From an uncultured virus (IMG/VR IMGVR_UViG_3300046513_000171) (lineage: Duplodnaviria; Heunggongvirae; Uroviricota; Caudoviricetes), in IMG/VR virus record IMGVR_UViG_3300046513_000171: a stretch of 22,544 nt of DNA. The stretch is one strand, 5' to 3'. The position numbers were made by a program, and so were the translations under genes. The first letter of the stretch is position 1. Every line of letters starts with the position of its first letter. Below the pieces are notes generated by a model. The model ran no database searches, was not told where the DNA came from, and saw only the letters and a program-made list of their open reading frames with translations. Positions 1 to 17,724 of this stretch are shown here, piece by piece.

Positions 1-313
1 GCCAGTCCGTCATGCCCGTAGTCTTCTCCGCTTCCTTGAGCGCGGCGTCATAGTCATCGAACGGGCCTTCGAGCGTCAACCCGTCGAACGCATTGCCGTA
101 CGCAATCACGAACTGCGGCACGCGTGTGTTCTGCTTCTCGAAGTACGCCTCGATGTCGGCGATGCGGTTGCGCATCTCTTCACGATCCTCGTCGGTGTAT
201 TGGTGGCACTCACCGCGCTCCATGTTGTCGAGGTCTGCCTTGAGCGTAGCCAGCAGCTCGCTCTCGATATAGAAAGCGACCGCCGTGTCGTCTGCAAAGT
301 GCTTGTACATCAT
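1..313 (-). CDS. Hypothetical phage protein, truncated by the window edge (MMYKHFADDTAVAFYIESELL...)
   Basis: Not in the ORF track. ATG at 313 follows palindrome plus GAAGGAG; frame is open to the window start; acidic protein-like translation. Confidence 0.8.
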   Translation of the reverse strand, partial: MMYKHFADDTAVAFYIESELLATLKADLDNMERGECHQYTDEDREEMRNRIADIEAYFEKQNTRVPQFVIAYGNAFDGLTLEGPFDDYDAALKEAEKTTGMTDW

Positions 314-348
314 GTCTCTCCTTCGGAAATTTCCGATTGGTGCTGCGG

Positions 349-627
349 TTAATCGCGCAAAACCTTCTGCGCCTTGTAGATCCACGCGCCGCGCTCGTGC
401 ACGGTGGTAGCTTCCTGAACAAGCTCGCGAAGTACCTGGTTATCTGCCGTGAGCTGATTAATCTGCTCGTCTCGTGTGTCGCGACCTTCCTTGCGCATGC
501 GCTCACGCAGGTGGAAGAAAAGCTCGGTGCGGTTCGCTGCATCTGCCGCGACGTTTTCGATAAACCACCACAGCGCTTGCGCGAGTGCCTGGCCGTCGAG
601 GTATGCCTTGGTCTGTTCGGTGTTCAC
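349..627 (-). CDS. Hypothetical phage protein, 92 aa
   Basis: GTG start after palindrome plus GAAGGAG; tiles between two palindrome copies. Confidence 0.85.
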   Translation of the reverse strand: MNTEQTKAYLDGQALAQALWWFIENVAADAANRTELFFHLRERMRKEGRDTRDEQINQLTADNQVLRELVQEATTVHERGAWIYKAQKVLRD

Positions 628-655
628 TTCGGTCTCCTTCGGAAATTTCCGAAAA

Positions 656-916
656 TTACTGCTGGTTCAGGTAATCCAGAATGCAGTGCTTCGCCGCGCG
701 CATGTCAGGCTCGGGCGTGTTGTAGCTCATGCTGAAGCATTCGAGATCCGTCGCTGCGAAGTGCGGCGCAGCCTTGATATTGATCGTGCGTGCGCCACGC
801 TGCCACTCGAAATACACGCCGTCGTTGGAGGTCGTGAAGTACAGGTACTCATGACCGTTGCGCTTGACGGTGCGCTCCAGGTTGATGTGGGCGTACCTCA
901 CCTTGGGTTTTTTCAC
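656..916 (-). CDS. Hypothetical phage protein, 86 aa
   Basis: GTG start after palindrome plus GAAGGAG; tiles between two palindrome copies. Confidence 0.85.
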   Translation of the reverse strand: MKKPKVRYAHINLERTVKRNGHEYLYFTTSNDGVYFEWQRGARTINIKAAPHFAATDLECFSMSYNTPEPDMRAAKHCILDYLNQQ

Positions 917-956
917 TTCGGGCTCCTTCGGAAATTTCCGATTGGTGCTGCGGTTG

Positions 957-1295
957 TTACTTCCAGAGGTGCTGCACCGTGACGATCAGGCCGACCATCG
1001 CGATGCCTACGATGTACAGCTTGTTCGTCAGGCGCTGCTCGATACCGTCGACGTGTGCCTTGAGCAAAGCAATGTCGGCCTTCAGATCAGATCTGGCCGC
1101 AGCCAGGTCTGCTTTCGTCGCGGCAATGTCGGCCTTCAGATCGGTCTTGAGCAGCGCCACGTCAGCCTTCGTCGCGACTGCGTCCGTCAGGCCCTTGTTG
1201 AGCGCGGTCACCAGGATCTCGGCGCCGCGCTCGGTCATGCCGCCCTCAGACGTGAGCTGCTTGATGAGTTCGTGTGTGTCGTTGAAAACGGGCAT
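957..1295 (-). CDS. DUF1640/CCDC90-like coiled-coil protein with C-terminal membrane anchor, 112 aa
   Basis: Start moved to ATG 1295 after TAAGGAGA; N-terminal DTHELIKQL..GMTERGAE, repeated ATKAD(V/L), C-terminal hydrophobic LYIVGIAMVGLIVTV. Confidence 0.8.
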   Translation of the reverse strand: MPVFNDTHELIKQLTSEGGMTERGAEILVTALNKGLTDAVATKADVALLKTDLKADIAATKADLAAARSDLKADIALLKAHVDGIEQRLTNKLYIVGIAMVGLIVTVQHLWK

Positions 1296-1305
1296 GACAG
1301 TCTCC

Positions 1306-1515
1306 TTAATCAACCGCGCGATGCACAACCTGCGTACCCACCGGTTTGCCGTCGATCATCTTCACGTCGGTCTCAGCCAGCGTCACGCTGACCATGTGGT
1401 GCTTCGACTTCGGCGTTTTGAACTTGACCAGCGCCGCGACCTTGGCGTCGTAAAGCGTGTTCGCGTAGATCTCCGCGCGCTGGCCGTTGTGCGAAAAAGC
1501 GATATAGCCGTTCAT
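1306..1515 (-). CDS. Hypothetical phage protein, 69 aa (MNGYIAFSHNG...)
   Basis: Start moved to ATG 1515 after palindrome plus GAAGGAG. Confidence 0.85.
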   Translation of the reverse strand: MNGYIAFSHNGQRAEIYANTLYDAKVAALVKFKTPKSKHHMVSVTLAETDVKMIDGKPVGTQVVHRAVD

Positions 1516-1540
1516 CTTGAACTCCTTCGGAAATTTCCGA

Positions 1541-2245
1541 TTAATGCTGCTCGACGATACTGCCATCAATGCGCACGACAGCGGCTACGTCCAGTTCGCT
1601 GTACTCCTTCGTGCACTGGTCCTCAGCCTCTTTCGCGCTCTTTGCCCACAGGCCGCGATACCAGCGCGTCTGGGCCACGCCGTTCAACCCGAACACACGC
1701 CAGAACTCCACGCGCACGAGCAGGTCTTCGTCGAGCGTAGTGGCTGTGCCGTCGTGCCATCCTGAAACCAGACCATCTTCATCGATCTTGCACTGGGAGC
1801 AGCCGTACGTCACGCGGCCGTCCTCGCTGGATACGGTCAGGATCTCGAACAGGTTCATCGACCACACGCCCGTCGTGCGCACCCTGTCCCCCACCTCGAA
1901 CTGCGGGCAAGGCTTGAGTGATGAGATATCGACAGGGAACGGGTTTCTGACACCCACCTTCACGCTGCGCAGCTGCGGCAGGCCGGCGTACATGCCGACC
2001 ACGGTCACGATCAGCCGGTCGTAGCTCATCATGGGCGGCACGTATATGGCCTTGCGGTGCGCGCCGAACGGGTCGAAAGTCGTGTTGACCGTGTGGACTA
2101 CCGTGCCGTTGTTGACGTTGGACCAGCACGCGCCTTCGTCCTCGCGGAGCACGGCAAATCCTTCACCACGCTTGATCCACACACGATCGTCCATCGGCAC
2201 TGTGAAGTGATCGCCTTCGACGAGTTCAAAGAACTTCAGTTTCAT
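1541..2245 (-). CDS. Hypothetical multi-module phage protein, 234 aa, with SH3/KOW-like FEVGDRVR motif
   Basis: ATG after palindrome plus GAAGGAG; the TAA stop abuts the next palindrome. Confidence 0.85.
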   Translation of the reverse strand: MKLKFFELVEGDHFTVPMDDRVWIKRGEGFAVLREDEGACWSNVNNGTVVHTVNTTFDPFGAHRKAIYVPPMMSYDRLIVTVVGMYAGLPQLRSVKVGVRNPFPVDISSLKPCPQFEVGDRVRTTGVWSMNLFEILTVSSEDGRVTYGCSQCKIDEDGLVSGWHDGTATTLDEDLLVRVEFWRVFGLNGVAQTRWYRGLWAKSAKEAEDQCTKEYSELDVAAVVRIDGSIVEQH

Positions 2246-2281
2246 TCTGTTCTCCTTCGGAAATTTCCGATTAGTGGTTGG

Positions 2282-2731
2282 TTACGCTTTCTCGCGCGCT
2301 GCAGCGAGTGCGGCCTTGGTTGCCTCGGACTTCTCCTTGCACTCGGCAGTCAGTTGGGTGTACACGCCGCCGTCGATCGCATACACATCACACAGGAAAG
2401 CCATCTGATGCACGATCAGGCGGATTGCTGCGTCATTGCGCACGTCCATCGTGTCGCCGTTCTCGCCGCGCTGGATCTGGTTGATACAGTGCACCAGCGA
2501 GCGCGCCACGCCGCTCAGATTGCCCGCCCCGGCCTGGATACCAATCGCATCGTTCCAGCGGTTGGAGGCGAGCACGTTCATGTCCTGCACGCCCGCCGTG
2601 AACGACTTCAGTCCCGGCCCTTCGAATGTCTGCACGGCAGGGCTCAGGATCTGGCGCACCATCTCGTGCGCTGCGGCATGTGATTCGGCTTCGAAAGTCA
2701 GTGCGATGTTCAGTGTGATCTGCTTGCTCAT
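2282..2731 (-). CDS. Hypothetical phage protein, 149 aa
   Basis: ATG after palindrome plus GAAGGAG; fits the tiling of the cluster. Confidence 0.85.
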   Translation of the reverse strand: MSKQITLNIALTFEAESHAAAHEMVRQILSPAVQTFEGPGLKSFTAGVQDMNVLASNRWNDAIGIQAGAGNLSGVARSLVHCINQIQRGENGDTMDVRNDAAIRLIVHQMAFLCDVYAIDGGVYTQLTAECKEKSEATKAALAAAREKA

Positions 2732-2759
2732 GATGGTGCTCTCCTTCGGAAATTTCCGA

Positions 2760-2957
2760 TTAATGAATGACCCGCTGGCAGTCGTGCAGCTTCAGAATGA
2801 AGCTCACATCCTCCCAGTCGAAGTCCTCGTTGATGTGATAATGCGAGCCCTCATGCAACTCGCATTGGTAAATCACCCCCGCTGACACCAGCGCCTGCGC
2901 CTCGTCATCATCCAGTACGCAAGGCACGGCGTCAGCTTCCAGAATCACTGCTGACAT
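2760..2957 (-). CDS. Small acidic hypothetical protein, 65 aa
   Basis: ATG 2 nt after the upstream stop; TAA abuts the palindrome at 2746-2759. Confidence 0.75.
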   Translation of the reverse strand: MSAVILEADAVPCVLDDDEAQALVSAGVIYQCELHEGSHYHINEDFDWEDVSFILKLHDCQRVIH

Positions 2958-2959
2958 CG

Positions 2960-3265
2960 TTACTTCGCAGCGAGCTGGCTGTCGTTGTTATCGATGTGCA
3001 CCCATGCCGGCCATTCCGCCTTCGCCGATGCCATGCTCGGCTGCTTCGGCATGTTGTCCTTGTAGTACTTCTCGCGCTCGACCGGGTTCATCGTCTGCGA
3101 GTTCGGAAAGTTTCCGAGCTGCGCCTGACCATAGCCATTCGCGCCGCCGTAGCTCGAACTCGATGCGGCCGCACCCGTGCCGTTGCCACCCGCCGATGCA
3201 CCACTGCCCGCAAATGCGGGCGCTGTGGCAATGAGAAGAAGCGCGGTAATCAGATACTTTTTCAT
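2960..3265 (-). CDS. Secreted/periplasmic small protein, 101 aa
   Basis: Sec-type signal peptide MKKYLITALLLIATAPAFA followed by a Gly/Ala/Ser-rich segment; AAGGGG upstream. Confidence 0.8.
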   Translation of the reverse strand: MKKYLITALLLIATAPAFAGSGASAGGNGTGAAASSSSYGGANGYGQAQLGNFPNSQTMNPVEREKYYKDNMPKQPSMASAKAEWPAWVHIDNNDSQLAAK

Positions 3266-3559: not shown

Positions 3560-4198
3560 TCAGAACACGAACTGGCGCAGGGTGCCGTTATCGAAGTAGT
3601 AAGCCGTGGTCACAGCCTTGTACTCGACAGCCGAGAGGACGAACACGGCGCGGTTCATCTCGCGCATCTTGTTCATCGCCTCGTCGGGCGTGAAGCCGGT
3701 GTACGACTCCACCACGGGCTCGATCGCAGCTGCGCCGTCTTCACACTCGCCGCGGTACAGGACACCCGTCACCACGTACGAGGCCGCCTTCACGATCTGG
3801 TGTTCGAACACGATGAACTCGAACTGGCCGCCGTTGATCTTGGCATTGACGCGCCACTGCTCGTTGCCCTGATAGCTGACGATCTCAGCCGTGTGACCGA
3901 TGCCGGGCAGGATTGTGAGGCGGATCATCTCGCAGGGCTCGAAGCGCTCGAAGCGCAGTTCGCGTTCTTCGGAAATTTCCGAAGCGGGCGCAGCGAGGTG
4001 TACGGTCTGGATGACCTGCTGTTCGCGCTCGAACGGCGTGACGAATGCAGCGCTGCTCATACGATGGGCGCTGTACTCACTGACCTTGCGGTAGTGAATG
4101 CCGGCCGCGACGAACGTGTTGTTCGTCGCGAGTTCGTGGAAGAGGCGCGTACCGGTCACGGCATAGCCCGCCGGCGCCATGATATTGGTGTGGGACAT
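3560..4198 (-). CDS. Hypothetical multi-module phage protein, 212 aa
   Basis: ATG after palindrome plus GGAG; contains an internal palindrome copy translated as SEISE. Confidence 0.85.
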   Translation of the reverse strand: MSHTNIMAPAGYAVTGTRLFHELATNNTFVAAGIHYRKVSEYSAHRMSSAAFVTPFEREQQVIQTVHLAAPASEISEERELRFERFEPCEMIRLTILPGIGHTAEIVSYQGNEQWRVNAKINGGQFEFIVFEHQIVKAASYVVTGVLYRGECEDGAAAIEPVVESYTGFTPDEAMNKMREMNRAVFVLSAVEYKAVTTAYYFDNGTLRQFVF

Positions 4199-4337
4199 GT
4201 GGGACTCCGTTCGGAAATTTCCGAAAAGGTTGACTGCGTTTTATGTGCTGTGCATCGATCGCTCTGTGTCGATCGGCGCACAGTTTGTCAGATTGAAACG
4301 CCAGAGTAAAGGCGTTTCGAGTCGAGGTGAAAACTGC

Positions 4338-5291
4338 TCATTCGGGTTTCATCTTGCGCTGCATTTCCTCCAGTGAGGTGAATTGGGAGAGCGCGAACTG
4401 CTGTGCGGCGTCGGGCGTTTGCTCCTTCTTTCTCGTGCCGGCCTCGAACAGGCGCTCCTGTACCTTTTTGGGCGTCTTCTGAAACCTGTGGCCCGAAATG
4501 TCCACCGCGTGCGCCTTGGCGTTGTCGGCCCACAGCTGCGCGTACGTGCGCCCGTTGTGCGCGGGCAGAAGCATCGCGTTAAGCGCCTCGGGGTTCCACA
4601 CGCGCAGGAGCAACACGAAGAAATCCGGCGTGATGACCGTGACGTGGTCATTGTTGCGCCCGCGCACACGCATGATGTGATGGCCCCAGCTCGGGTAGCG
4701 CTCCTTCACGGTACGCGACTGCATGCTGGGCGTGATATCGCTCACGGGTGGCAGGAACCGGCACACGTCGGCCCACGAAAGCCAGGGCGTGTCGTTCACG
4801 TACAGGATGCGCAGGGGTGGCGACTTCTCCGTGATCCACGCCGTGTAGTGAAAACGCGCCGTCTGCTTTTCATCTTCAGTCGGCAGTGCGGGCACATCGT
4901 CAAGCGGACCCACGGCCGGCGCGATGCCTCGAAGCGCGCCGTTCTTCGTCACGGGCATGCCGGGGGGCGGCGCCATTGTCGGAAATTTCCGAACCGTCAC
5001 CCAATCGTTGAAGAGGTTCCACGTGTCGTGGCCCTCGATACGGTTCTGCAACCACTGCATGACAAGCGGGTGGGCTGCAAAGCGCAGCGTCAGGCGCTCG
5101 TTGCCTGGGTTCGGTACGAGGGTCGTGAATTCCGGCGCGTATTTCGGGATCTGCGCGCTGGAGCTGGGGTTCAGGTTGAGCAGCTTGACCACGTCTGCGG
5201 CGCACCACATGAGCCCGAACTCGGGGTGGATATAGCAGCGAACGAGCGACGGGAGTTGGGAGCCGTCGTAAGGAAAAATCTCGGTAATCAT
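4338..5291 (-). CDS. Tandem BRO-N-like (antirepressor-type) DNA-binding protein, 317 aa
   Basis: Two BRO-N-like signatures, VRCYIHPEFGLMWCAADVVKLL and LRILYVNDTPWLSWADVCRFL, separated by a Pro-rich linker; AGGAGG upstream. Confidence 0.7.
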   Translation of the reverse strand: MITEIFPYDGSQLPSLVRCYIHPEFGLMWCAADVVKLLNLNPSSSAQIPKYAPEFTTLVPNPGNERLTLRFAAHPLVMQWLQNRIEGHDTWNLFNDWVTVRKFPTMAPPPGMPVTKNGALRGIAPAVGPLDDVPALPTEDEKQTARFHYTAWITEKSPPLRILYVNDTPWLSWADVCRFLPPVSDITPSMQSRTVKERYPSWGHHIMRVRGRNNDHVTVITPDFFVLLLRVWNPEALNAMLLPAHNGRTYAQLWADNAKAHAVDISGHRFQKTPKKVQERLFEAGTRKKEQTPDAAQQFALSQFTSLEEMQRKMKPE

Positions 5292-5597
5292 AATATTCGC
5301 TTAGCCCTCCTGGGCCGTCAAAAAGGTAGGCACCTCCCAGAAAGAGGCGCAGGGGAAAAACACGATCACACAGAAAACAGCGGGGTCATTGCCGGGAGTG
5401 ACACCCAAAAAAGCAGGGGCGGGAGGCAATGCGAATACTATACTCTATTAATATCAAAAGAATAATAATAATAGAGTCTCTATGTTCGTGTGTCGCTGTG
5501 ATCCGATCGATGTTATTTCGCTGCGCGGTGCCAGATCGCTGCGAGTTTCGGAAATTTCCGAACGTCGAATCGGCCGCAAACCCTTGCTGGTAGCCAA

Positions 5598-6013
5598 TGC
5601 GCAAGTCGTGCGCAAGTCGTGCGCAAGTCAGAGAGTGTTGCTGAAAATGAGACAATATGGGCGAGTAATGGCATTATTCGTGCGAAACGTGGTCCATTAG
5701 CGCGAATTTTGCAATTATGCGAAATGCTCAATCGTCTCACGGCCACCGCTATGGCACGAGTATTACGACATTACTCGTGTTGTTTTCACGCCACACCGCG
5801 ACTTGCGCAAAATCGCCTCTGACTTGCGCAAATTTGTGTCAATTGTTCGTGCTAAAGCACTAAAAAAGCACGGTCGGACTGCGCAAGTCGCGATTACATC
5901 CCGCTTACAAAAGAACAATCCACTCCGCTTTCGGAAATTTCCGAAACAAACCACTCAGAAATTGCCGGAAACGAAGGAAACGACTTGCGCAAAGCCAATG
6001 CGCAAGTCGTTTC
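5598..6013. repeat. Cluster of eight TGCGCAAGTC motifs in non-coding DNA (iteron/operator-like)
   Basis: Plus-strand copies at 5598, 5609, 5620 (11-bp tandem), 5880, 5999; reverse copies GACTTGCGCA at 5800, 5821, 5982; 15-bp perfect inverted repeat 5977-5991/5999-6013. Confidence 0.9.
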
Positions 6014-6016
6014 TTC

Positions 6017-6163
6017 TCATCGGACGCTGCACCAGACCACGCCCCACGCGCCGCCCAGGAGCACGCCCGTCACACACGCGGCCGCAATCACCCACACGGT
6101 GTGATCGCCGTGCACGACGTACGCGGCGAGCTTCGGAAATTTCCGAAACAGGGTGCGCTTCAT
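6017..6163 (-). CDS. Small membrane protein, 48 aa (MKRTLFRKFPKLAAYVVHGDHTVWVIAAACVTGVLLGGAWGVVWCSVR)
   Basis: ATGA overlap with the upstream stop; C-terminal hydrophobic helix; palindrome encodes RKFP. Confidence 0.65.
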   Translation of the reverse strand: MKRTLFRKFPKLAAYVVHGDHTVWVIAAACVTGVLLGGAWGVVWCSVR

Positions 6164-6336
6164 CGCCCACCCCGCGAGATGTAATGACCGGCGATGAGAC
6201 GCTGCGCCGTCTTGCGCGCCATGAACATCATCGCGTCGCGGCCCCATGCGGTTGACATATGGGGAACGGACTTCAGCTGTGACGCGAGCAGCATCGCGTC
6301 GTCGGACTTGCCCTGTGCGTGCGGGATGGTTTTCAT
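6160..6336 (-). CDS. Hypothetical protein, 58 aa (MKTIPHAQGKSDDAMLLASQLK...)
   Basis: Translated by hand; GGAGAGG upstream; ATGA overlaps at both ends. Confidence 0.65.
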   Translation of the reverse strand: MKTIPHAQGKSDDAMLLASQLKSVPHMSTAWGRDAMMFMARKTAQRLIAGHYISRGGR

Positions 6337-6410: not shown

Positions 6411-6462
6411 GTTCGGACTCCTTCGGAAATTTCCGAAAATACTACGTTGAAAATGGGCGGAT

Positions 6463-6741
6463 TTATGCCTTGCGCCCCCACAGGCGGATTTCACGCAATG
6501 CCAGGCACGCGAGACGGTCTACCTCGTCCAGCTGCGCGGGCGTGCCCTCCCACACGAGCACGAGCTGTTTCGCCTCATGCACGGACTGGCGGTTGACGGC
6601 GCGCATGTACACACGCCGCTCTTGCGCCTCACGCCGCGATACGTTGTAGATCGGTTCGCACAACTTAATGAGACGGTCGGCATAAATCTCGACCGTGCTG
6701 CGACCAACAAACACGGCGCGTTCGGAAATTTCCGAATTCAT
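6463..6741 (-). CDS. Hypothetical phage protein, 92 aa
   Basis: AGGAGGTGA SD; TGATG overlap with the upstream gene; palindrome at codons 3-7 (SEISE). Confidence 0.75.
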   Translation of the reverse strand: MNSEISERAVFVGRSTVEIYADRLIKLCEPIYNVSRREAQERRVYMRAVNRQSVHEAKQLVLVWEGTPAQLDEVDRLACLALREIRLWGRKA

Positions 6742-7202
6742 CAATCACCTCCTGGCAAGTGGCAGCACGCATACAAGGCGGCCGCCTGTTTGAGCAATAG
6801 CTGGCGCCGACTCGTGCGAATCGTGCGTTTGCCACTACTTGTGGTGACACGCTGAGACGTTATTTCATCGTCACCGCATCGCGCCGCCTTTTCGAGCAAT
6901 TCGGAAATTTCCGAACTGTAGTCATACCGGCCTGTCTCGCCGATGAGTTCATCCGTCAGCGCATCGCGCATCTCGACATACGCGCCGCCTTTCGGAAATT
7001 TCCGAAAGGCTGTCAGCGCCCGCTGTCTGTCCGCACCACGATATAGCGCGGACCACGAACCATTACCCGTGCGCCAGAAAACGCAGTAACGCGCACGGTG
7101 CACGTCAAACGGACGCGCATGCCCGTACACTTTCGGATACGCGCCGCCAACCTGCGAACCGATCGCAGAGAGTGCGCGCGACACGTCGCGCAAGTCTTCC
7201 AT
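6741..7202 (-). CDS. Hypothetical phage protein, 153 aa, with two internal palindrome copies
   Basis: GGAG SD upstream; palindromes translated as RKFP and SEISE. Confidence 0.75.
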   Translation of the reverse strand: MEDLRDVSRALSAIGSQVGGAYPKVYGHARPFDVHRARYCVFWRTGNGSWSALYRGADRQRALTAFRKFPKGGAYVEMRDALTDELIGETGRYDYSSEISELLEKAARCGDDEITSQRVTTSSGKRTIRTSRRQLLLKQAAALYACCHLPGGD

Positions 7203-7313: not shown

Positions 7314-8102
7314 TTACTCTGCATCGCCGGTTTGCGTGACAGGTGCGGGCAGGTCCACGCCGACAACGCTTGCAACACTGGCGCGCAACACGTTCAATTC
7401 ACCTGCCCACGCTGCGAGCGTATCGGAATCAAGCGAAGCGGCATTTACCGCAGCGTCGCTAAGCGCGTTCGCAATGATGCTCATACGGTCAAGCGTCGCT
7501 GCAATGTCAGCGGCGCGTGAAGTCGCTTGTGCTACTTGCTCAGCACGCGCGGTTTGCTCTGCATCCGGTGCGCCAGTCAGACCAACGTTCCCCGCGGGCG
7601 TGGATTCGACGGCGGCCTTTTCAGGGGCATCCTTCTTAGGCTGGAGGGCCTGGAGGGACGCAAACCCGCTGACGTTACGCAGGTCGGCAAGCTTGCCTGC
7701 TTCGATAGCCTTTGCGCACAGACGAAAAATCTTGAGCGCGTATTCACGGCGCTTGTCCTTCGAGTCTGCCCACGCATCGCGCACGATACCGCGCGCGGCC
7801 TCATCCCCCATATGCAGGAAGAGCGCGACGGACGACAGGAAGAACCGGCCCTGCGACGCTTCAAAGGCGTTCCCGTCCGCGATAAAGATATCGCGTGCTG
7901 TCGCCTCGTCCTGGAAGAGCGCTGCCACTTTGCCGACAGGTGAGAGAGCGCTGTAATGTGCGCGGGCATCACGAGGGAGTGCGGCGCGTACAGCGTCGAT
8001 TGCGGCATGTTCCGTGCTGACAGCGTGCGATGCTGCGACCGTACCGAACGTAGCGAAGACATTGTTGGCTTTGGCAACGACGTTAGCGGAAAGGGCTTTC
8101 AT
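7314..8102 (-). CDS. Hypothetical Ala-rich protein, 262 aa; first gene of the leftward cluster
   Basis: GAGG SD; long ORF co-oriented with the cluster. Confidence 0.8.
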   Translation of the reverse strand: MKALSANVVAKANNVFATFGTVAASHAVSTEHAAIDAVRAALPRDARAHYSALSPVGKVAALFQDEATARDIFIADGNAFEASQGRFFLSSVALFLHMGDEAARGIVRDAWADSKDKRREYALKIFRLCAKAIEAGKLADLRNVSGFASLQALQPKKDAPEKAAVESTPAGNVGLTGAPDAEQTARAEQVAQATSRAADIAATLDRMSIIANALSDAAVNAASLDSDTLAAWAGELNVLRASVASVVGVDLPAPVTQTGDAE

Positions 8103-8542: not shown

Positions 8543-8571
8543 TTGACATTCACTCCCCATAAATCTACAGT
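8543..8571 (+). promoter_or_regulatory. Sigma70-type promoter TTGACA-17-TACAGT
   Basis: Perfect -35, 17-bp spacer, 4/6 -10, AT-rich upstream; expected +1 coincides with ATG 8578. Confidence 0.75.
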
Positions 8572-8577
8572 CTCGCC

Positions 8578-9024
8578 ATGAAATTCTCCGACGACAACCT
8601 GTTCGATGAAGAGCCCGAGCTGCACCGCGTCGATTCGCGTGCGCAAGGGGTGATCGACATGATCAAGGAGCTGTCCGCCGAGGACCAGCTGCTGGTCATG
8701 ATGGCCACGCGCGCCATGAACCCGGTGCGCGCCGAGGACATCGACCTCGAACAGGAGATCGCCGAGCAGCTGCGCGCGGCCCAGTTCCTGATGACGGAAG
8801 TGCTCACCAGCAAGGCCAACACGACCAGCAAGACGAGCGCCCTGTCGGCCGTCTCGCGCGCGATCAAGCAGCTCACCGACCTGCAGGCGAAGACGTACAA
8901 CATCAACCGGCTGCGCGCACTGGAGAAGGCTCTCGTGACGACGCTGCACGGCCACCCGGATGGCGACGCGCTGCTCGCGCAGTGGCGCTCGACGTTCCAG
9001 CGCATGGTCCAGGCGGGCGTATGA
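8578..9024 (+). CDS. Helical phage protein, 148 aa; possible terminase small subunit
   Basis: Strong GC3-biased ORF; size, helical character and position next to the cos-like site suggest TerS, but no diagnostic motif. Confidence 0.45.
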   Translation: MKFSDDNLFDEEPELHRVDSRAQGVIDMIKELSAEDQLLVMMATRAMNPVRAEDIDLEQEIAEQLRAAQFLMTEVLTSKANTTSKTSALSAVSRAIKQLTDLQAKTYNINRLRALEKALVTTLHGHPDGDALLAQWRSTFQRMVQAGV

Positions 9025-9227: not shown

Positions 9228-9427
9228 ACGAGACCGAACTCAGCCTGCAGCGCGGGCTCACCACCCCCGAAGAGACGCTGCGCTTCTATGAGCAGCTCGC
9301 GATCCTCGATGGCGACCACAAGCGCGCCAAGGGCCTCGCCGACCGTATCGCCGCCAACCATTACCGCGTCCTGCTCGGCGACGCGTTCTTCCGTCGCCTG
9401 CACAACACATGGACATCCGGCCTATGA
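9224..9427 (+). CDS. Hypothetical protein, 67 aa
   Basis: ATGA overlaps with both neighbours; GC3-biased. Confidence 0.75.
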   Translation: MNETELSLQRGLTTPEETLRFYEQLAILDGDHKRAKGLADRIAANHYRVLLGDAFFRRLHNTWTSGL

Positions 9428-9756
9428 CCAAGCCACCCAGCAAGCCCACCAGACGCCACTACCCGCCCCGCGCGATCGGCGTCATCTCGGTACCCATCGC
9501 CCTCATACGCAGCATTTCCGAGCGCACGGGCATCGCCGAGGACGTGGTGCGCGTGGTGCTCGTCACCGCCCTCGAAGAAATCAAGACGGCCGCCCGCACC
9601 ACGCGCGTGACCTTCCGCAACTTCGGCACGTTCCAGTCGACCACGTACAAGGGCACCACGCGCGCGATGCCCAGCGACCCGAGCACACCCATTACCTTTC
9701 CCACCCGCCGCCGGCTGGTCCTCAAATCCGTGTCAGAACCAGAGGCGGATCAGTGA
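9424..9756 (+). CDS. HU/IHF-like histone-like DNA-binding protein, 110 aa
   Basis: LIRSISERTGI...VTFRNFGTF...P..ITFPTRRRLVLK matches the HU/IHF pattern; start moved to ATG 9424 (ATGA overlap). Confidence 0.8.
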   Translation: MTKPPSKPTRRHYPPRAIGVISVPIALIRSISERTGIAEDVVRVVLVTALEEIKTAARTTRVTFRNFGTFQSTTYKGTTRAMPSDPSTPITFPTRRRLVLKSVSEPEADQ

Positions 9757-10444: not shown

Positions 10445-11113
10445 ATGCTGATAGCCGTCGCCACCCGCAAGGGCGGGGTGGGCAAGACCACTATTGCCAC
10501 CAATCTGGCCGTGCGCCGGGCGCAGGACTCGCCCGACGTCCACCTCGTCGATGCCGACCGCGATGAGTACGCGCACATGTTCGGACTGACGCGCCGCGAG
10601 AACAACATCACGCCGACCATCAGCCTGTCCAAAATGACGGGCAACATTTACCCCGACCTGATCGCCGCGCGCGCCGCGCACGAGACCGTGATCGTCGACG
10701 TCGGCGGCAAGCAGGCGCCCGAGATCGTCTACGCGGTGGGCGCCTGCGACGTGCTGGTGCTCCCGGTACGCGCCGGTCAGTACGACGCGTGGTCGCTGCA
10801 GGCTGCCGCGCGCATGGTCAGCGAGATGCGCGCGAACGGCAAGACCTTCCGCATCGTCCCCGTGATGAACGCGATCCCGCCGGAGAAGAACAGCTCGCTC
10901 ACGCGCATGATCGAGGCCGAGCTGAAGACGCTCACGGAGATCTTCGGCGAGCCCAGGGTGCGCATCGTCGAGCGCGTGGCGTTCGTGACCGCCTCGATCG
11001 GCGGCAAGGGCGTGTGCGAGCTGAAGCGCGGGCGCGACACGGCGTCGGCTATCGACGAGATGGAAGCGCTGTACCGGGAGGTGTTCGGTACCGTCGCGCC
11101 CGCGCGCGCGTGA
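10445..11113 (+). CDS. parA: ParA/ParF-type partition ATPase (type Ib, no N-terminal HTH), 222 aa
   Basis: Deviant Walker A KGGVGKTT at the N-terminus, LVDAD, VIVDVGG; start moved to ATG 10445 after GGAG. Confidence 0.93.
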   Translation: MLIAVATRKGGVGKTTIATNLAVRRAQDSPDVHLVDADRDEYAHMFGLTRRENNITPTISLSKMTGNIYPDLIAARAAHETVIVDVGGKQAPEIVYAVGACDVLVLPVRAGQYDAWSLQAAARMVSEMRANGKTFRIVPVMNAIPPEKNSSLTRMIEAELKTLTEIFGEPRVRIVERVAFVTASIGGKGVCELKRGRDTASAIDEMEALYREVFGTVAPARA

Positions 11114-11145
11114 TAACAGAAAACCCCCGTTTAAGGAGAATTTTT

Positions 11146-11412
11146 ATGACCAAGCCAGCAGCGTTCAGCGCGGTACCCGACGCGATCGAGCGGATGGCGC
11201 GCGAGGCAGCAGGGGAGAGCGAGGCGCCGACACAGGGCGGCCGCAAGCTCCCCGTGAAGGCCTCGACCAAGGCCATGAGCGTGAACATGCCCAAGGACGT
11301 CTACGACCGGCTGCGGGACTTCTGGAAGCTCACCGACATCCCCATGACCGACGTGATCGTGCAGGGGACGATCAAGGAGCTGGCCCGCCTGTCGAAAGAA
11401 CACGGCGTCTGA
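11146..11412 (+). CDS. ParG-like ribbon-helix-helix centromere-binding protein, 88 aa
   Basis: TAAGGAG SD; flexible N-terminus then AMSVNMPKDVYDRLRDF..TDIPMTDVI (RHH pattern); directly after parA. Confidence 0.8.
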   Translation: MTKPAAFSAVPDAIERMAREAAGESEAPTQGGRKLPVKASTKAMSVNMPKDVYDRLRDFWKLTDIPMTDVIVQGTIKELARLSKEHGV

Positions 11413-11862
11413 AACGCAACTAGCTGTCTGCCACCCCAAACGGGGACGAACAGACCGCTAGTTGCCTTTTCTGCAAAACCGCTTTTCAGGGGTAGGTGGT
11501 CCACCCGCGCCCGCCTGGGGACAGCCGGGTTGCCCACACTGGCGTGTGGACAATCGGCGAGCCGATTCCCCGCCTGACCACAGGCTCCCCACGAGCTTCG
11601 CCCTTCGGGCCTGACGCGCGCTTCGCGCTTGCCCCAGTGAGAGAGAAAGTCAAAATTCGAACCCCCGAAACCGTCGGTTAACCAACAATAAGAAAGGAGG
11701 TTCGTCCAGACCGCTGTAAGTCACTGTAAACGTTGGAAAATTCCGTCCCCGAAAGGGGTCACAGATGTCCCGAATAGGGGACACTGGAGTCACCATTGCG
11801 TAGAGGTGGATCAATGGTCTATAGTCCTGTCAAGGGACATCGACGTCCTTCTATGTGACAGG
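11413..11862. promoter_or_regulatory. Probable plasmid oriV / rep control region
   Basis: About 450 bp non-coding before rep; three imperfect palindromes GGG(A/T)C-N6-GTC(C/A)(C/T) at 11756, 11778, 11834. Confidence 0.65.
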
Positions 11863-12393
11863 ATGCAGCAGGTGAGGAACGCGAATTTGCCCGAATTGGG
11901 GACGCCCGAGACACACAAGCCTGACTTGGGTGGCTGGCTTCAAGTGGAGAAAAAGACCTTGCGCGCTATTACGCAACTCACCGTCAAGCACCCAGTCGCA
12001 GCCGGGATGCTGCACTTGCTGGCAAGCAAGATGAGCCGCACAAACGCGGTCGTTCTGAGCCATAAGGCCATTGCCGAAGAGCTGGGTGTCGTCGAGCGCA
12101 GCGTCAAGCGGGCGCTCGTGATCTTACGCGAAGGCAATTGGGTCGAGGTGCTCAAGGTCGGGACGACCAACGCGTACCGGATCAACTCGCGCGTCTACTG
12201 GCAAGGCGAACGCGGCAAACGGTTCGCCAGCTTCTACGCGGCGGTGTCGGTGCGTGAGGATGAGCAAGACCCGGGCGTCGTGGACAACCACGAACCGCTG
12301 CATCAGATCCCCGTTGCCGCGCCCGACGAGCGCGTTCTGGTGGGCAACGAACCGCTCGACCCTCCAGACCAGCAGGAGCTGTTTCTAGCATGA
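11863..12393 (+). CDS. rep: Plasmid replication initiator of the pBBR1 Rep / RepL-like HTH type; start uncertain (11806-11872)
   Basis: GWLQVEKK..HPVAAGMLHLLASKMSRTNAVVLSHKAIAEELG..RSVKRAL..L..GNW..AYRINSRVYW..FYAAVSV aligns by eye with recalled pBBR1 Rep (HWVQTERK..PTAAMLLHHLVAQMGHQNAVVVSQKTL..AYVVNDRVAW..FSAAVVV). Confidence 0.85.
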   Translation: MQQVRNANLPELGTPETHKPDLGGWLQVEKKTLRAITQLTVKHPVAAGMLHLLASKMSRTNAVVLSHKAIAEELGVVERSVKRALVILREGNWVEVLKVGTTNAYRINSRVYWQGERGKRFASFYAAVSVREDEQDPGVVDNHEPLHQIPVAAPDERVLVGNEPLDPPDQQELFLA

Positions 12394-12536
12394 TCGGGAT
12401 CAACGAGGCCGCCATTGACCAGCTCGTCACGAAGCAGGAACTGAAGCTGGCCGTCTCCGAACTCAAAAACACGATATGGGGCGCAGCGTTCAGCATCGTG
12501 CTCGCGCTCGGCATCCTCCAGCACTTCCTGCGCTGA
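12390..12536 (+). CDS. Small membrane-anchored coiled-coil peptide, 48 aa (MIGINEAAIDQLVTKQELKLAVSELKNTIWGAAFSIVLALGILQHFLR), miniature DUF1640-like
   Basis: Translated by hand; AGGAG SD; ATGA overlap with the rep stop. Confidence 0.7.
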   Translation: MIGINEAAIDQLVTKQELKLAVSELKNTIWGAAFSIVLALGILQHFLR

Positions 12537-17695: not shown

Positions 17696-17724
17696 TTGAC
17701 AGACTTCATCAGGACGTCTAATCT
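17696..17724 (+). promoter_or_regulatory. Sigma70 promoter TTGACA-17-TAATCT
   Basis: Perfect -35, 17-bp spacer, -10 with the conserved TA---T; just after a terminator. Confidence 0.75.

Follow-up and report, generated by a model that had tools for sequence, protein, structure and literature searches.

The stretch considered here, 22,544 nucleotides from an uncultured virus of the Caudoviricetes (IMG/VR record IMGVR_UViG_3300046513_000171) and termed the window, comprises bases 62,001-84,544 of an 84,544-base virus record, and the element at issue is a 14-bp palindrome that recurs through one arm of the genome, mostly joined to a Shine-Dalgarno (SD) sequence. Coordinates are those of the window unless given as genome positions; the whole genome, whose record ends overlap by 127 bases, is labelled G000. 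By Pfam/PHROG scans the window codes for a terminase, a portal, an S49 protease and a major capsid protein. Outside it the genome carries a lambda-like tail, PolA, a primase, helicases, an SbcC/D-like nuclease, a ligase and a Holliday-junction resolvase. The terminase and the portal protein share 26-30% identity with their counterparts in JWF, 2-1, Lumi, Seuss, PMBT3, SHOU24 and Vibrio K478-type phages. The arm spans 17 kb of leftward, co-oriented and mostly small genes with no assigned function, and from gene content and position these are likely to be early genes. All 21 metagenome runs listed are from rhizosphere; 11 contain at least half of the words, and six of those are possibly the source. 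Comparison is with one relative, 093 (85,240 bases), with fragments 133 and 251, and, for strain-level joints, across eight metagenome runs.

The palindrome is present in 28 copies genome-wide (26 exact, two with one mismatch), every one within genome positions 51,907-69,005. Sixteen exact copies are in the window, between 323 and 7005, where dinucleotide shuffles give 0.56 matches even when up to three mismatches are allowed. Nineteen of the 28 are fused to an SD, seven lie inside open reading frames (ORFs) and two are non-coding, which puts 21 outside ORFs. In the fused copies palindrome and AGGAG make up one identical block of 19-21 bp, and the distance to the start codon is nearly fixed (11-14 nt) in both G000 and 093. 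AGGAG is present ahead of 16 of the 18 palindrome-headed arm genes, as against four of the 26 others. The relative 093 has 27 copies, confined to its positions 63,396-80,866 and with 20 of them SD-fused, and the two fragments have seven each. No conserved promoter-like motif occurs in the 45 nt upstream of the SD-fused copies (19 in G000, 20 in 093), and none of the four strong promoter-like sites in the genome touches a palindrome.

The initial annotation had described the gene junctions on the minus strand as a stop codon, the palindrome, AGGAG and a start codon in close succession, and that layout holds up: the eight palindrome-to-start distances it gave (10, 12, 12, 12, 12, 15, 13 and 13 nt) are as measured, the gaps from stop codon to palindrome are 12, 3, 15, 0, 11 and 0 nt, SD-to-start spacers are 4-9 nt, and an upstream TAA directly adjoins the palindromes at 1527..1540 and 2746..2759. 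The SD reads AGGAG except at the copy before start 4198, where ACGGAG comes next. Where that account needs enlarging is in treating the palindrome as a standard 5' adaptor: this suits the 19 fused copies, and nine of the 28 have no SD. Half of the window copies (eight of 16, beginning at 3969, 4979, 5548, 5931, 6133, 6722, 6901 and 6992) are not SD adaptors. With 28 copies in the whole genome, the element is also larger than first noted. In the window the copies, for which no strand is assigned, and associated features are as follows.

323..336, exact palindrome, fused to AGGAG on the minus strand, 10 nt from start 313.
639..652, exact palindrome, SD-fused, at the head of gene 349-627.
928..941, exact palindrome, SD-fused, at the head of gene 656-916; one edge of a 599-bp module missing from a strain in run X14.
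943..1521, minus strand, two-gene module (1306-1515 and 957-1295) between two repeats, missing in a contig of run X14.
1527..1540, exact palindrome, SD-fused, adjoining the upstream TAA.
2257..2270, exact palindrome, SD-fused, at the head of gene 1541-2245.
2746..2759, exact palindrome, SD-fused, adjoining the upstream TAA.
3103..3117, 15-bp variant with one extra central base, in ORF 2960-3265, outside the tally of 28.
3969..3982, exact palindrome without SD, in ORF 3560-4198.
4211..4224, exact palindrome followed by ACGGAG, at the head of ORF 3560-4198.
4979..4992, exact palindrome in ORF 4338-5291 (codons R-K-F-P), at the same codon position in two relatives with proteins of about 33% identity to this one.
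5548..5561, exact palindrome, non-coding, on one flank of an iteron-like tract, in the same place in 093 and 251.
5931..5944, exact palindrome, non-coding, on the opposite flank of that tract.
6133..6146, exact palindrome in the 48-aa ORF 6017-6163 (R-K-F-P), kept in 093 and 251.
6423..6436, exact palindrome, SD-fused, at the head of a 25-aa ORF with start 6410.
6722..6735, exact palindrome in the 5' end of ORF 6463-6744.
6901..6914, exact palindrome in ORF 6741-7202 (S-E-I-S frame), kept in 093 and 251.
6992..7005, exact palindrome, the first of the arm, in ORF 6741-7202 (R-K-F-P frame), kept in 093 and 251.

Copies without an SD are instructive with regard to what has been selected. Four orthologous copies inside ORFs are identical in G000 and 093/251, with all 16 codons inside them unchanged, and one of these sits in a protein that is only about 33% identical (101 of 310 aligned residues). 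The codons concerned are often rare in the genome (AAA is used for 12% of Lys, TTT for 14% of Phe and ATT for 11% of Ile). Outside the palindrome some 47% of codons for the same residue are unchanged (50/107, 12/25 and 41/89), and at that rate the chance of 16 unchanged codons is 0.47^16, or about 6e-6. Two non-coding copies have likewise been kept in place in relatives. The retention of rare codons in SD-free copies therefore points to selection on the nucleotides themselves, with no SD involved.

Comparable arrays exist in more distant phages. Scanned de novo for palindromes, G000 and 11 named relatives (JWF being covered for 35-81.5 kb) yield a multi-copy palindrome in eight of the 12 genomes, i.e. 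in G000 and seven of the 11 relatives, and the motifs are lineage-specific. Besides the 28 copies in G000 there are 36 of TGGTC-TNA-GACCA (TTGGTCT-N-AGACCAA in its longer form) in K478b and 14 of the same motif in SHOU24, 21 of TTACT-N5-AGTAA in Lumi (17 without terminal-repeat duplicates), 12 of GTTCG-TWA-CGAAC in 2-1 and 10 in JWF, and 10 of GGGTA-ACGT-TACCC in KB12-38. The weakest case is Seuss, with seven copies (five unique) of TTACC-N3-GGTAA, under its top background count of 9. For PMBT3, Lana, UAntarctica and TCUP2199 the top palindrome counts in the scan are only 4-6. Starts that bear an SD have an excess of copies within 45 nt in all eight genomes as well as in 093 (p from 0.04 to 1e-18); the palindrome-to-start distance is fixed in G000 and 093 and variable in the others. 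At one place in Lumi (record position 75,889) an SD, AGGAG, doubles as the 5-nt spacer of the palindrome. Elsewhere the G000 palindrome gives 55 single matches in metagenomes and six in GTDB, all taken as chance, and these collections provided no prophage copy and no host; a further viral scan added only contigs that are unrelated. A literature search with the core motif gave no phage paper among the matches listed and one with the five family motifs gave no match, though the original JWF genome paper or its supplements may mention such repeats; the Lumi paper does not contain the string 'palindrom'.

Whether the palindrome acts as RNA or as DNA is the first point on which these data bear. As RNA the 14-mer is predicted to form, immediately 5' of the SD, a hairpin of 5 bp capped by an AAUU loop (dG -4.9 kcal/mol; in context the median pairing probability is 0.95), and a phage RNA-binding protein or nuclease recognizing it could set translation or processing cistron by cistron. 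The 11-14-nt distance to starts in G000 and 093 and the association with AGGAG would suit such a role, as would the one-base variants in G000, 093 and 133, three of whose five distinct forms fall in the 4-nt loop. The stem ending at the SD that the initial annotation envisaged is thus predicted to fold, yet the SD is no more open with it than with a shuffled core (0.53 versus 0.51, higher at 10 of 19 sites). There is no compensatory change among the copies of G000, 093, 133 and 251, the AAUU loop is self-complementary as well, and copies lacking an SD, in ORFs and in non-coding DNA, are kept. The counterparts in relatives are also pertinent. That of Lumi scarcely folds (median -1.2 kcal/mol), its inner pairs being broken 18 times and compensated twice, and the central base of the K478b palindrome is free (C16/G10/T3/A2 on the mRNA-like strand). 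Both patterns are better accommodated by half-site recognition on duplex DNA than by a hairpin, and an RNA element appears unlikely to be what the array is for.

A different aspect is the involvement of the blocks in gene traffic. In one of the eight runs, X14, a contig has a joint (L016, 12922->13522) omitting 599 bp, which is exactly the spacing between the palindromes at 928 and 1527; 20 letters fit both sides (923-942 and 1522-1541), i.e. the crossover is inside the repeat. This joint comes from a single 895-nt contig of depth 5.65, and an assembly artefact would be unlikely because the contigs have 31-letter words, longer than the repeat. A second joint (6844->7528), found in four of the eight runs, omits a two-gene module between the copies at genome positions 56,829 and 57,508, whose repeats share a 35-nt match with one mismatch. 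These are two repeat-to-repeat module differences between near-identical strains, with loss and gain alike possible. Gene order is permuted with respect to 093, all four order changes being at palindrome-headed junctions, and between 133 and 093 similarity begins 3 nt ahead of a palindrome. At base level, the strain joints are evidence that gene modules are moved by putatively regulatory repeats of 20-35 bp.

Not all movement is of this type. Among the joints listed, five of seven well-defined indels are not repeat-to-repeat: gene 6463-6744 is missing stop to stop in strains of runs X8, X11 and X14 and in 093/251, there is a 156/153-bp replacement, gene 6160-6336 is affected at an overlapping stop-start, and 133 has two insertions relative to 093, one of them bordered by a palindrome on one side. 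(The tally omits joints marked 'between: not known' that have short sides, because the repeat itself can produce them.) Synteny breaks with respect to 093 affect 13 of the 19 arm junctions headed by a palindrome and 15 of the remaining 29, which is not a significant enrichment (p=0.20); the junction at genome position 57,928, where the gene has a longer N-terminus in 093, is counted as intact. From these counts, recombination makes use of the repeats without being directed to them. The proposal in the initial annotation of a cassette-like array, with breaks in relatives to be expected at the palindromes, accordingly survives in part: blocks do flank modules by whose presence near-identical strains differ, and one crossover falls inside the repeat, but breakpoints show no significant enrichment at palindromes.

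It is a further step to a dedicated cassette system in which palindrome plus SD is a recombination adaptor, integron- or PeSL-like, maintained for swapping genes together with their ribosome site. The two module differences, the four order changes and the 133/093 boundary are what it would lead one to expect. The indels that ignore the repeats and the lack of junction enrichment are not, and in-ORF copies, which would be harmful as swap points, are nevertheless kept. Pfam/PHROG scans detected no integrase or site-specific recombinase family among the called genes, many of which have no family. An integron encodes a tyrosine integrase (IntI), and its attC sites are long imperfect hairpins with R and L boxes at each cassette end; the repeat here is a perfect dyad of 14 bp that heads modules at their 5' end, and it is missing from many genes. 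Such a system is improbable, and the cassette pattern is likely a by-product of an operator array instead of an integron-type system.

Several known phage repeats invite comparison. PeSLs of the T4-type phages RB49 and phi1 are elements of ~100 bp with a sigma70 promoter and a terminating stem-loop; they end in an SD, lie in hyperplastic small-gene regions, and recombination between them removes or moves genes (PMC2839356). The two module differences are a parallel in that recombination between copies adds or removes genes. However, the shared block here is only 19-35 bp, and has no conserved promoter motif upstream. The predicted stem leads into AGGAG, not into a U-tract. The start-associated sequences of Cluster K mycobacteriophages (SAS), like their extended version (ESAS), have a repeat with or beside AGGAG a few bases before the starts of non-structural genes, and the ESAS inverted repeats, whose consensus is subcluster-specific, were judged to be DNA-protein sites (PMC3203893, PMC12699233). 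Their placement resembles that of the 19 of 28 copies here that lie a few nucleotides from starts and abut AGGAG. Nevertheless, the SAS, a 13-mer in which the SD is included (consensus GGGATAGGAGCCC), is not palindromic, and the sequence here is different and palindromic; ESAS consists of two imperfect 17-bp repeats with a variable spacer, and here there is one perfect 14-bp dyad that is conserved also without SD.

Cluster O mycobacteriophages have ~30 near-invariant copies of a 17-bp palindrome, TGTTCGG-NNN-CCGAACA, intergenic and in ORFs; they are dense in a leftward small-gene region, a dimeric protein was proposed to bind, their function is unexplained, and there are repeat-to-repeat deletions between close genomes (PMC4351075). 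Copy number, placement both between and within genes, and repeat-to-repeat deletions are shared with the present array. Half-site and spacing, host phylum and phage group are not, and Cluster O sites are genome-wide and not closely tied to translation starts, whereas here two thirds are SD-fused and all are in one arm. Furthermore, Cluster O phages are without integrase and parAB, and here parA/rep is present. In Cluster A mycobacteriophages (L5, D29, TipsytheTRex) there are ~25 copies of a short site, mostly intergenic, through which one repressor silences many genes (PMC5712189, PMC9283540), and these stoperators also recombine among themselves to give deletions (PMC5712189). The present array likewise has 20-30 copies of one short site, mostly outside ORFs (28 copies, 21 of them outside); the Cluster A repressor is, though, monomeric with two domains, and the candidate binder described below is predicted to be a winged helix-turn-helix (wHTH) dimer. 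Injection-stop palindromes of T5 were also considered as a model and set aside, since those cluster in non-coding DNA (bioRxiv 10.1101/866236).

The best candidate for a binder is the product of a 119-aa gene at genome positions 52,487-52,846, outside the window. No arm gene is better conserved: identity to the 093 version is 88%, and an 86-kb contig encodes a wHTH protein 65% identical to it. VIA structure comparison of the model of this product (predicted local distance difference test, pLDDT, 70.5) gives a winged helix: the RIO2 wHTH domain (Z 10.8, root-mean-square deviation, rmsd, 2.4, 83 aligned), TubR (Z 10.5, rmsd 2.2, 81 aligned) and then many MarR-type repressors. Modeling predicts a homodimer (score 0.81 against 0.00 for the best control, contacts agreeing to at least 94% between runs, pLDDT at least 87) at a score mark that 20 of 30 solved homodimers and one of 23 single chains reach; the pass may reflect likeness to solved wHTH dimers, and it is silent on DNA. 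The gene has its own sigma70-like promoter, TTGACA-17-TAATCT, both hexamers of which are unchanged in 093 and 133. Sites of the form TTGACA-17-TAnnnT number only four in the genome (shuffles: mean 0.13, maximum 2), as listed here.

8543-8578, TTGACA-17-TAnnnT site.
17696, TTGACA-17-TAnnnT site.
Genome 52,884, TTGACA-17-TAnnnT site.
Genome 42,061, TTGACA-17-TAnnnT site.

All except that at 17696 sit shortly upstream of a called gene and in its sense direction, and those at 8543 and 52,884 end 6-9 nt ahead of an ATG, which suggests leaderless or near-leaderless mRNAs. Because the promoter of the winged-helix gene lies between the last two palindromes, that gene could be expressed while the arm upstream of it is blocked. 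Other proteins fared less well as binders. The first arm gene (7314-8102) has no family or fold lead, and both ORF 4338-5291 and the small partner of ParA diverge too far among genomes that share an identical palindrome.

In relatives, among 149 arm proteins called in JWF, Lumi and K478b, Pfam scans point to regulators of other kinds. K478b has a PadR wHTH gene directly behind a palindrome, with a homologue behind a palindrome in SHOU24 too; in Lumi the far end of the arm codes for a Cro/C1-type helix-turn-helix (HTH) protein, with homologues likewise in JWF, 2-1 and Seuss (E 0.004 for Seuss). An HTH regulator is thereby present in the palindrome arm of six of the seven palindrome-bearing named relatives, and none of the three regulators (winged-helix, PadR, Cro/C1) has a match in the four palindrome-negative genomes. 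(A PadR family search of 10 named relatives gave nothing at E<=0.001; it is insensitive, since it missed even the SHOU24 homologue that phmmer detects.)

The distribution of regulators and motifs is relevant to whether the host supplies the binder. That a host transcription factor, acting as a repressor on the palindrome, couples the arm to the state of the host is very improbable. One motif common to two Vibrio phages is what would be expected if the host sets it, but JWF/2-1 and Lumi both infect Burkholderiales and the motif of the former pair is unrelated to that of Lumi, and HTH genes encoded in the arms go with the motifs. To our knowledge, none of the family motifs matches a LexA box.

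Another possibility is that the sites organize DNA and do not serve repression: an array that acts like a centromere or coats the DNA could control partition, replication or genome entry of the arm. It derives some encouragement from a cassette on the plus strand.

10445..12393, plus strand, genes for ParA, a small partner and a RepL-like protein (Pfam/PHROG scans).

TubR, a wHTH protein that binds centromeres, ranks among the two closest structural matches to the candidate binder, and two palindrome copies bracket the iteron-like tract. Set against this, ParA and its partner differ strongly between G000 and relatives with the identical palindrome, the cassette as a whole not being the same there; no convincing ParA match was obtained in the named palindrome-bearing relatives (best E 0.01), and a centromere has no need of enrichment at gene starts. 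A DNA-organizing role is accordingly improbable. What the cassette does suggest is a plasmid-like dormant state, which would need the arm to be silenced.

The reading favored here, at a probability of roughly 60%, is that the palindromes are DNA sites for a phage-encoded dimeric repressor that silences the arm in stoperator-like fashion, the DNA role, the repression and the binder all being inferred; on that supposition, the odds that the winged-helix protein is the binder are about even. A phage dimer would occupy many dyads at once, and the resulting series of roadblocks would repress the arm, whether during plasmid-like dormancy (parA/rep) or at the close of the early phase. Most copies would have come to occupy the short spacers before start codons as the sole free space, and in this lineage the spacer may have shrunk until palindrome and AGGAG merged into one block. 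The fusion probably arises because spacers offer the only free space and because a crossover in the block gives an incoming gene both elements. Homologous recombination of the ordinary kind between blocks would then probably excise, insert and reorder modules.

A number of observations weigh against a repressor array. The predicted hairpin and the lean of one-base variants towards its loop have been mentioned. Though the array would work most like the stoperators of Cluster A, those 13-mers lack symmetry and point in the direction of transcription, and the present site is a perfect dyad. Cluster A also has an operator on the early promoter. Here no palindrome copy is upstream of the first arm gene, the first copy being inside the second gene; the position of the arm promoter was not located. 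A classical promoter operator therefore seems to be missing and repression would need the roadblock. The promoter of the winged-helix gene carries no palindrome, the gene product has no Pfam match below E 0.08 and no Foldseek match below E 0.04, and a centromere-binding protein is among its closest structural matches. The three types of regulator are not homologous to each other, none has a match in KB12-38 even though that genome bears a palindrome, and their link to palindromes is a correlation across a few related genomes. In KB12-38, moreover, the copies are mostly upstream of AT-rich and TTGA-type promoter-like sequence.

More tentatively, and on balance doubtfully, JWF/Seuss/Lumi/SHOU24-like siphoviruses of Proteobacteria may each have a lineage-private 'regulon by adaptor', comprising their own palindrome and their own HTH dimer, and in the G000 lineage operator and ribosome site would share a single fused 19-bp block in which crossovers also take place. 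If so, a gene gained at a junction would arrive already translated and under repressor control, yielding a self-wiring accessory arm without an integrase, and a lineage-private code of this sort would bear on the Cluster O and ESAS repeats, which have been unexplained since first described. The group has cultured members (Seuss, which infects Caulobacter crescentus, Lumi, JWF, K478), and so adds repeats paired with named candidate regulators and cultured hosts in Proteobacterial phages. Dispersed arrays are already known; what is new is a palindromic site array fused to the SD that is also a crossover point and has lineage-specific counterparts, with strain evidence at the level of single bases tying control of an accessory arm to how the arm evolves.

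The tract between the two non-coding palindromes merits separate mention. Within 5291-6017 there are eight copies of GACTTGCGC in both orientations beside an AT-rich tract (~5430-5480), and the copies in 093 and 251 are, in concert, all GACTTGTGC; from its sequence the region looks like an iteron origin. ORF 4338-5291, which adjoins it, codes for a fast-diverging 317-aa protein with no Pfam/PHROG match, which looks, by eye, like two domains of BRO-N type. As the iterons differ from lineage to lineage, it is a candidate for the protein that binds them. In an unrelated group of viral contigs (L142, L143, L145, L148, L151 and L152) the same palindrome occurs at the joins of tandem 9-bp repeats, which look like an iteron array. 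The KB12-38 copies (record positions 34,090-60,016) are GC-rich palindromes of 16-18 bp, after which come an AT-rich conserved block and -35-like hexamers of TTGA type, and the whole looks like a PeSL-like repeated promoter unit.

Among neighboring genes, a protein with an H-NS C-terminal domain is coded in the arm at genome positions 57,531-57,926, and a gene for an HU-like protein (9409-9756) is ahead of parA. Plasmid matches of ParA (35-38%) pointed to no host. Summed read depth is raised near genome 67.5-70 kb, which is not a copy number but might hint at a terminal repeat, and no use has been made of it. Arm gene 957-1295 has a weak CCDC90-like match and is kin to a 73-aa ORF in the strain contig L017, the C-terminal part of which matches a small ORF (12390-12536) behind the rep gene.

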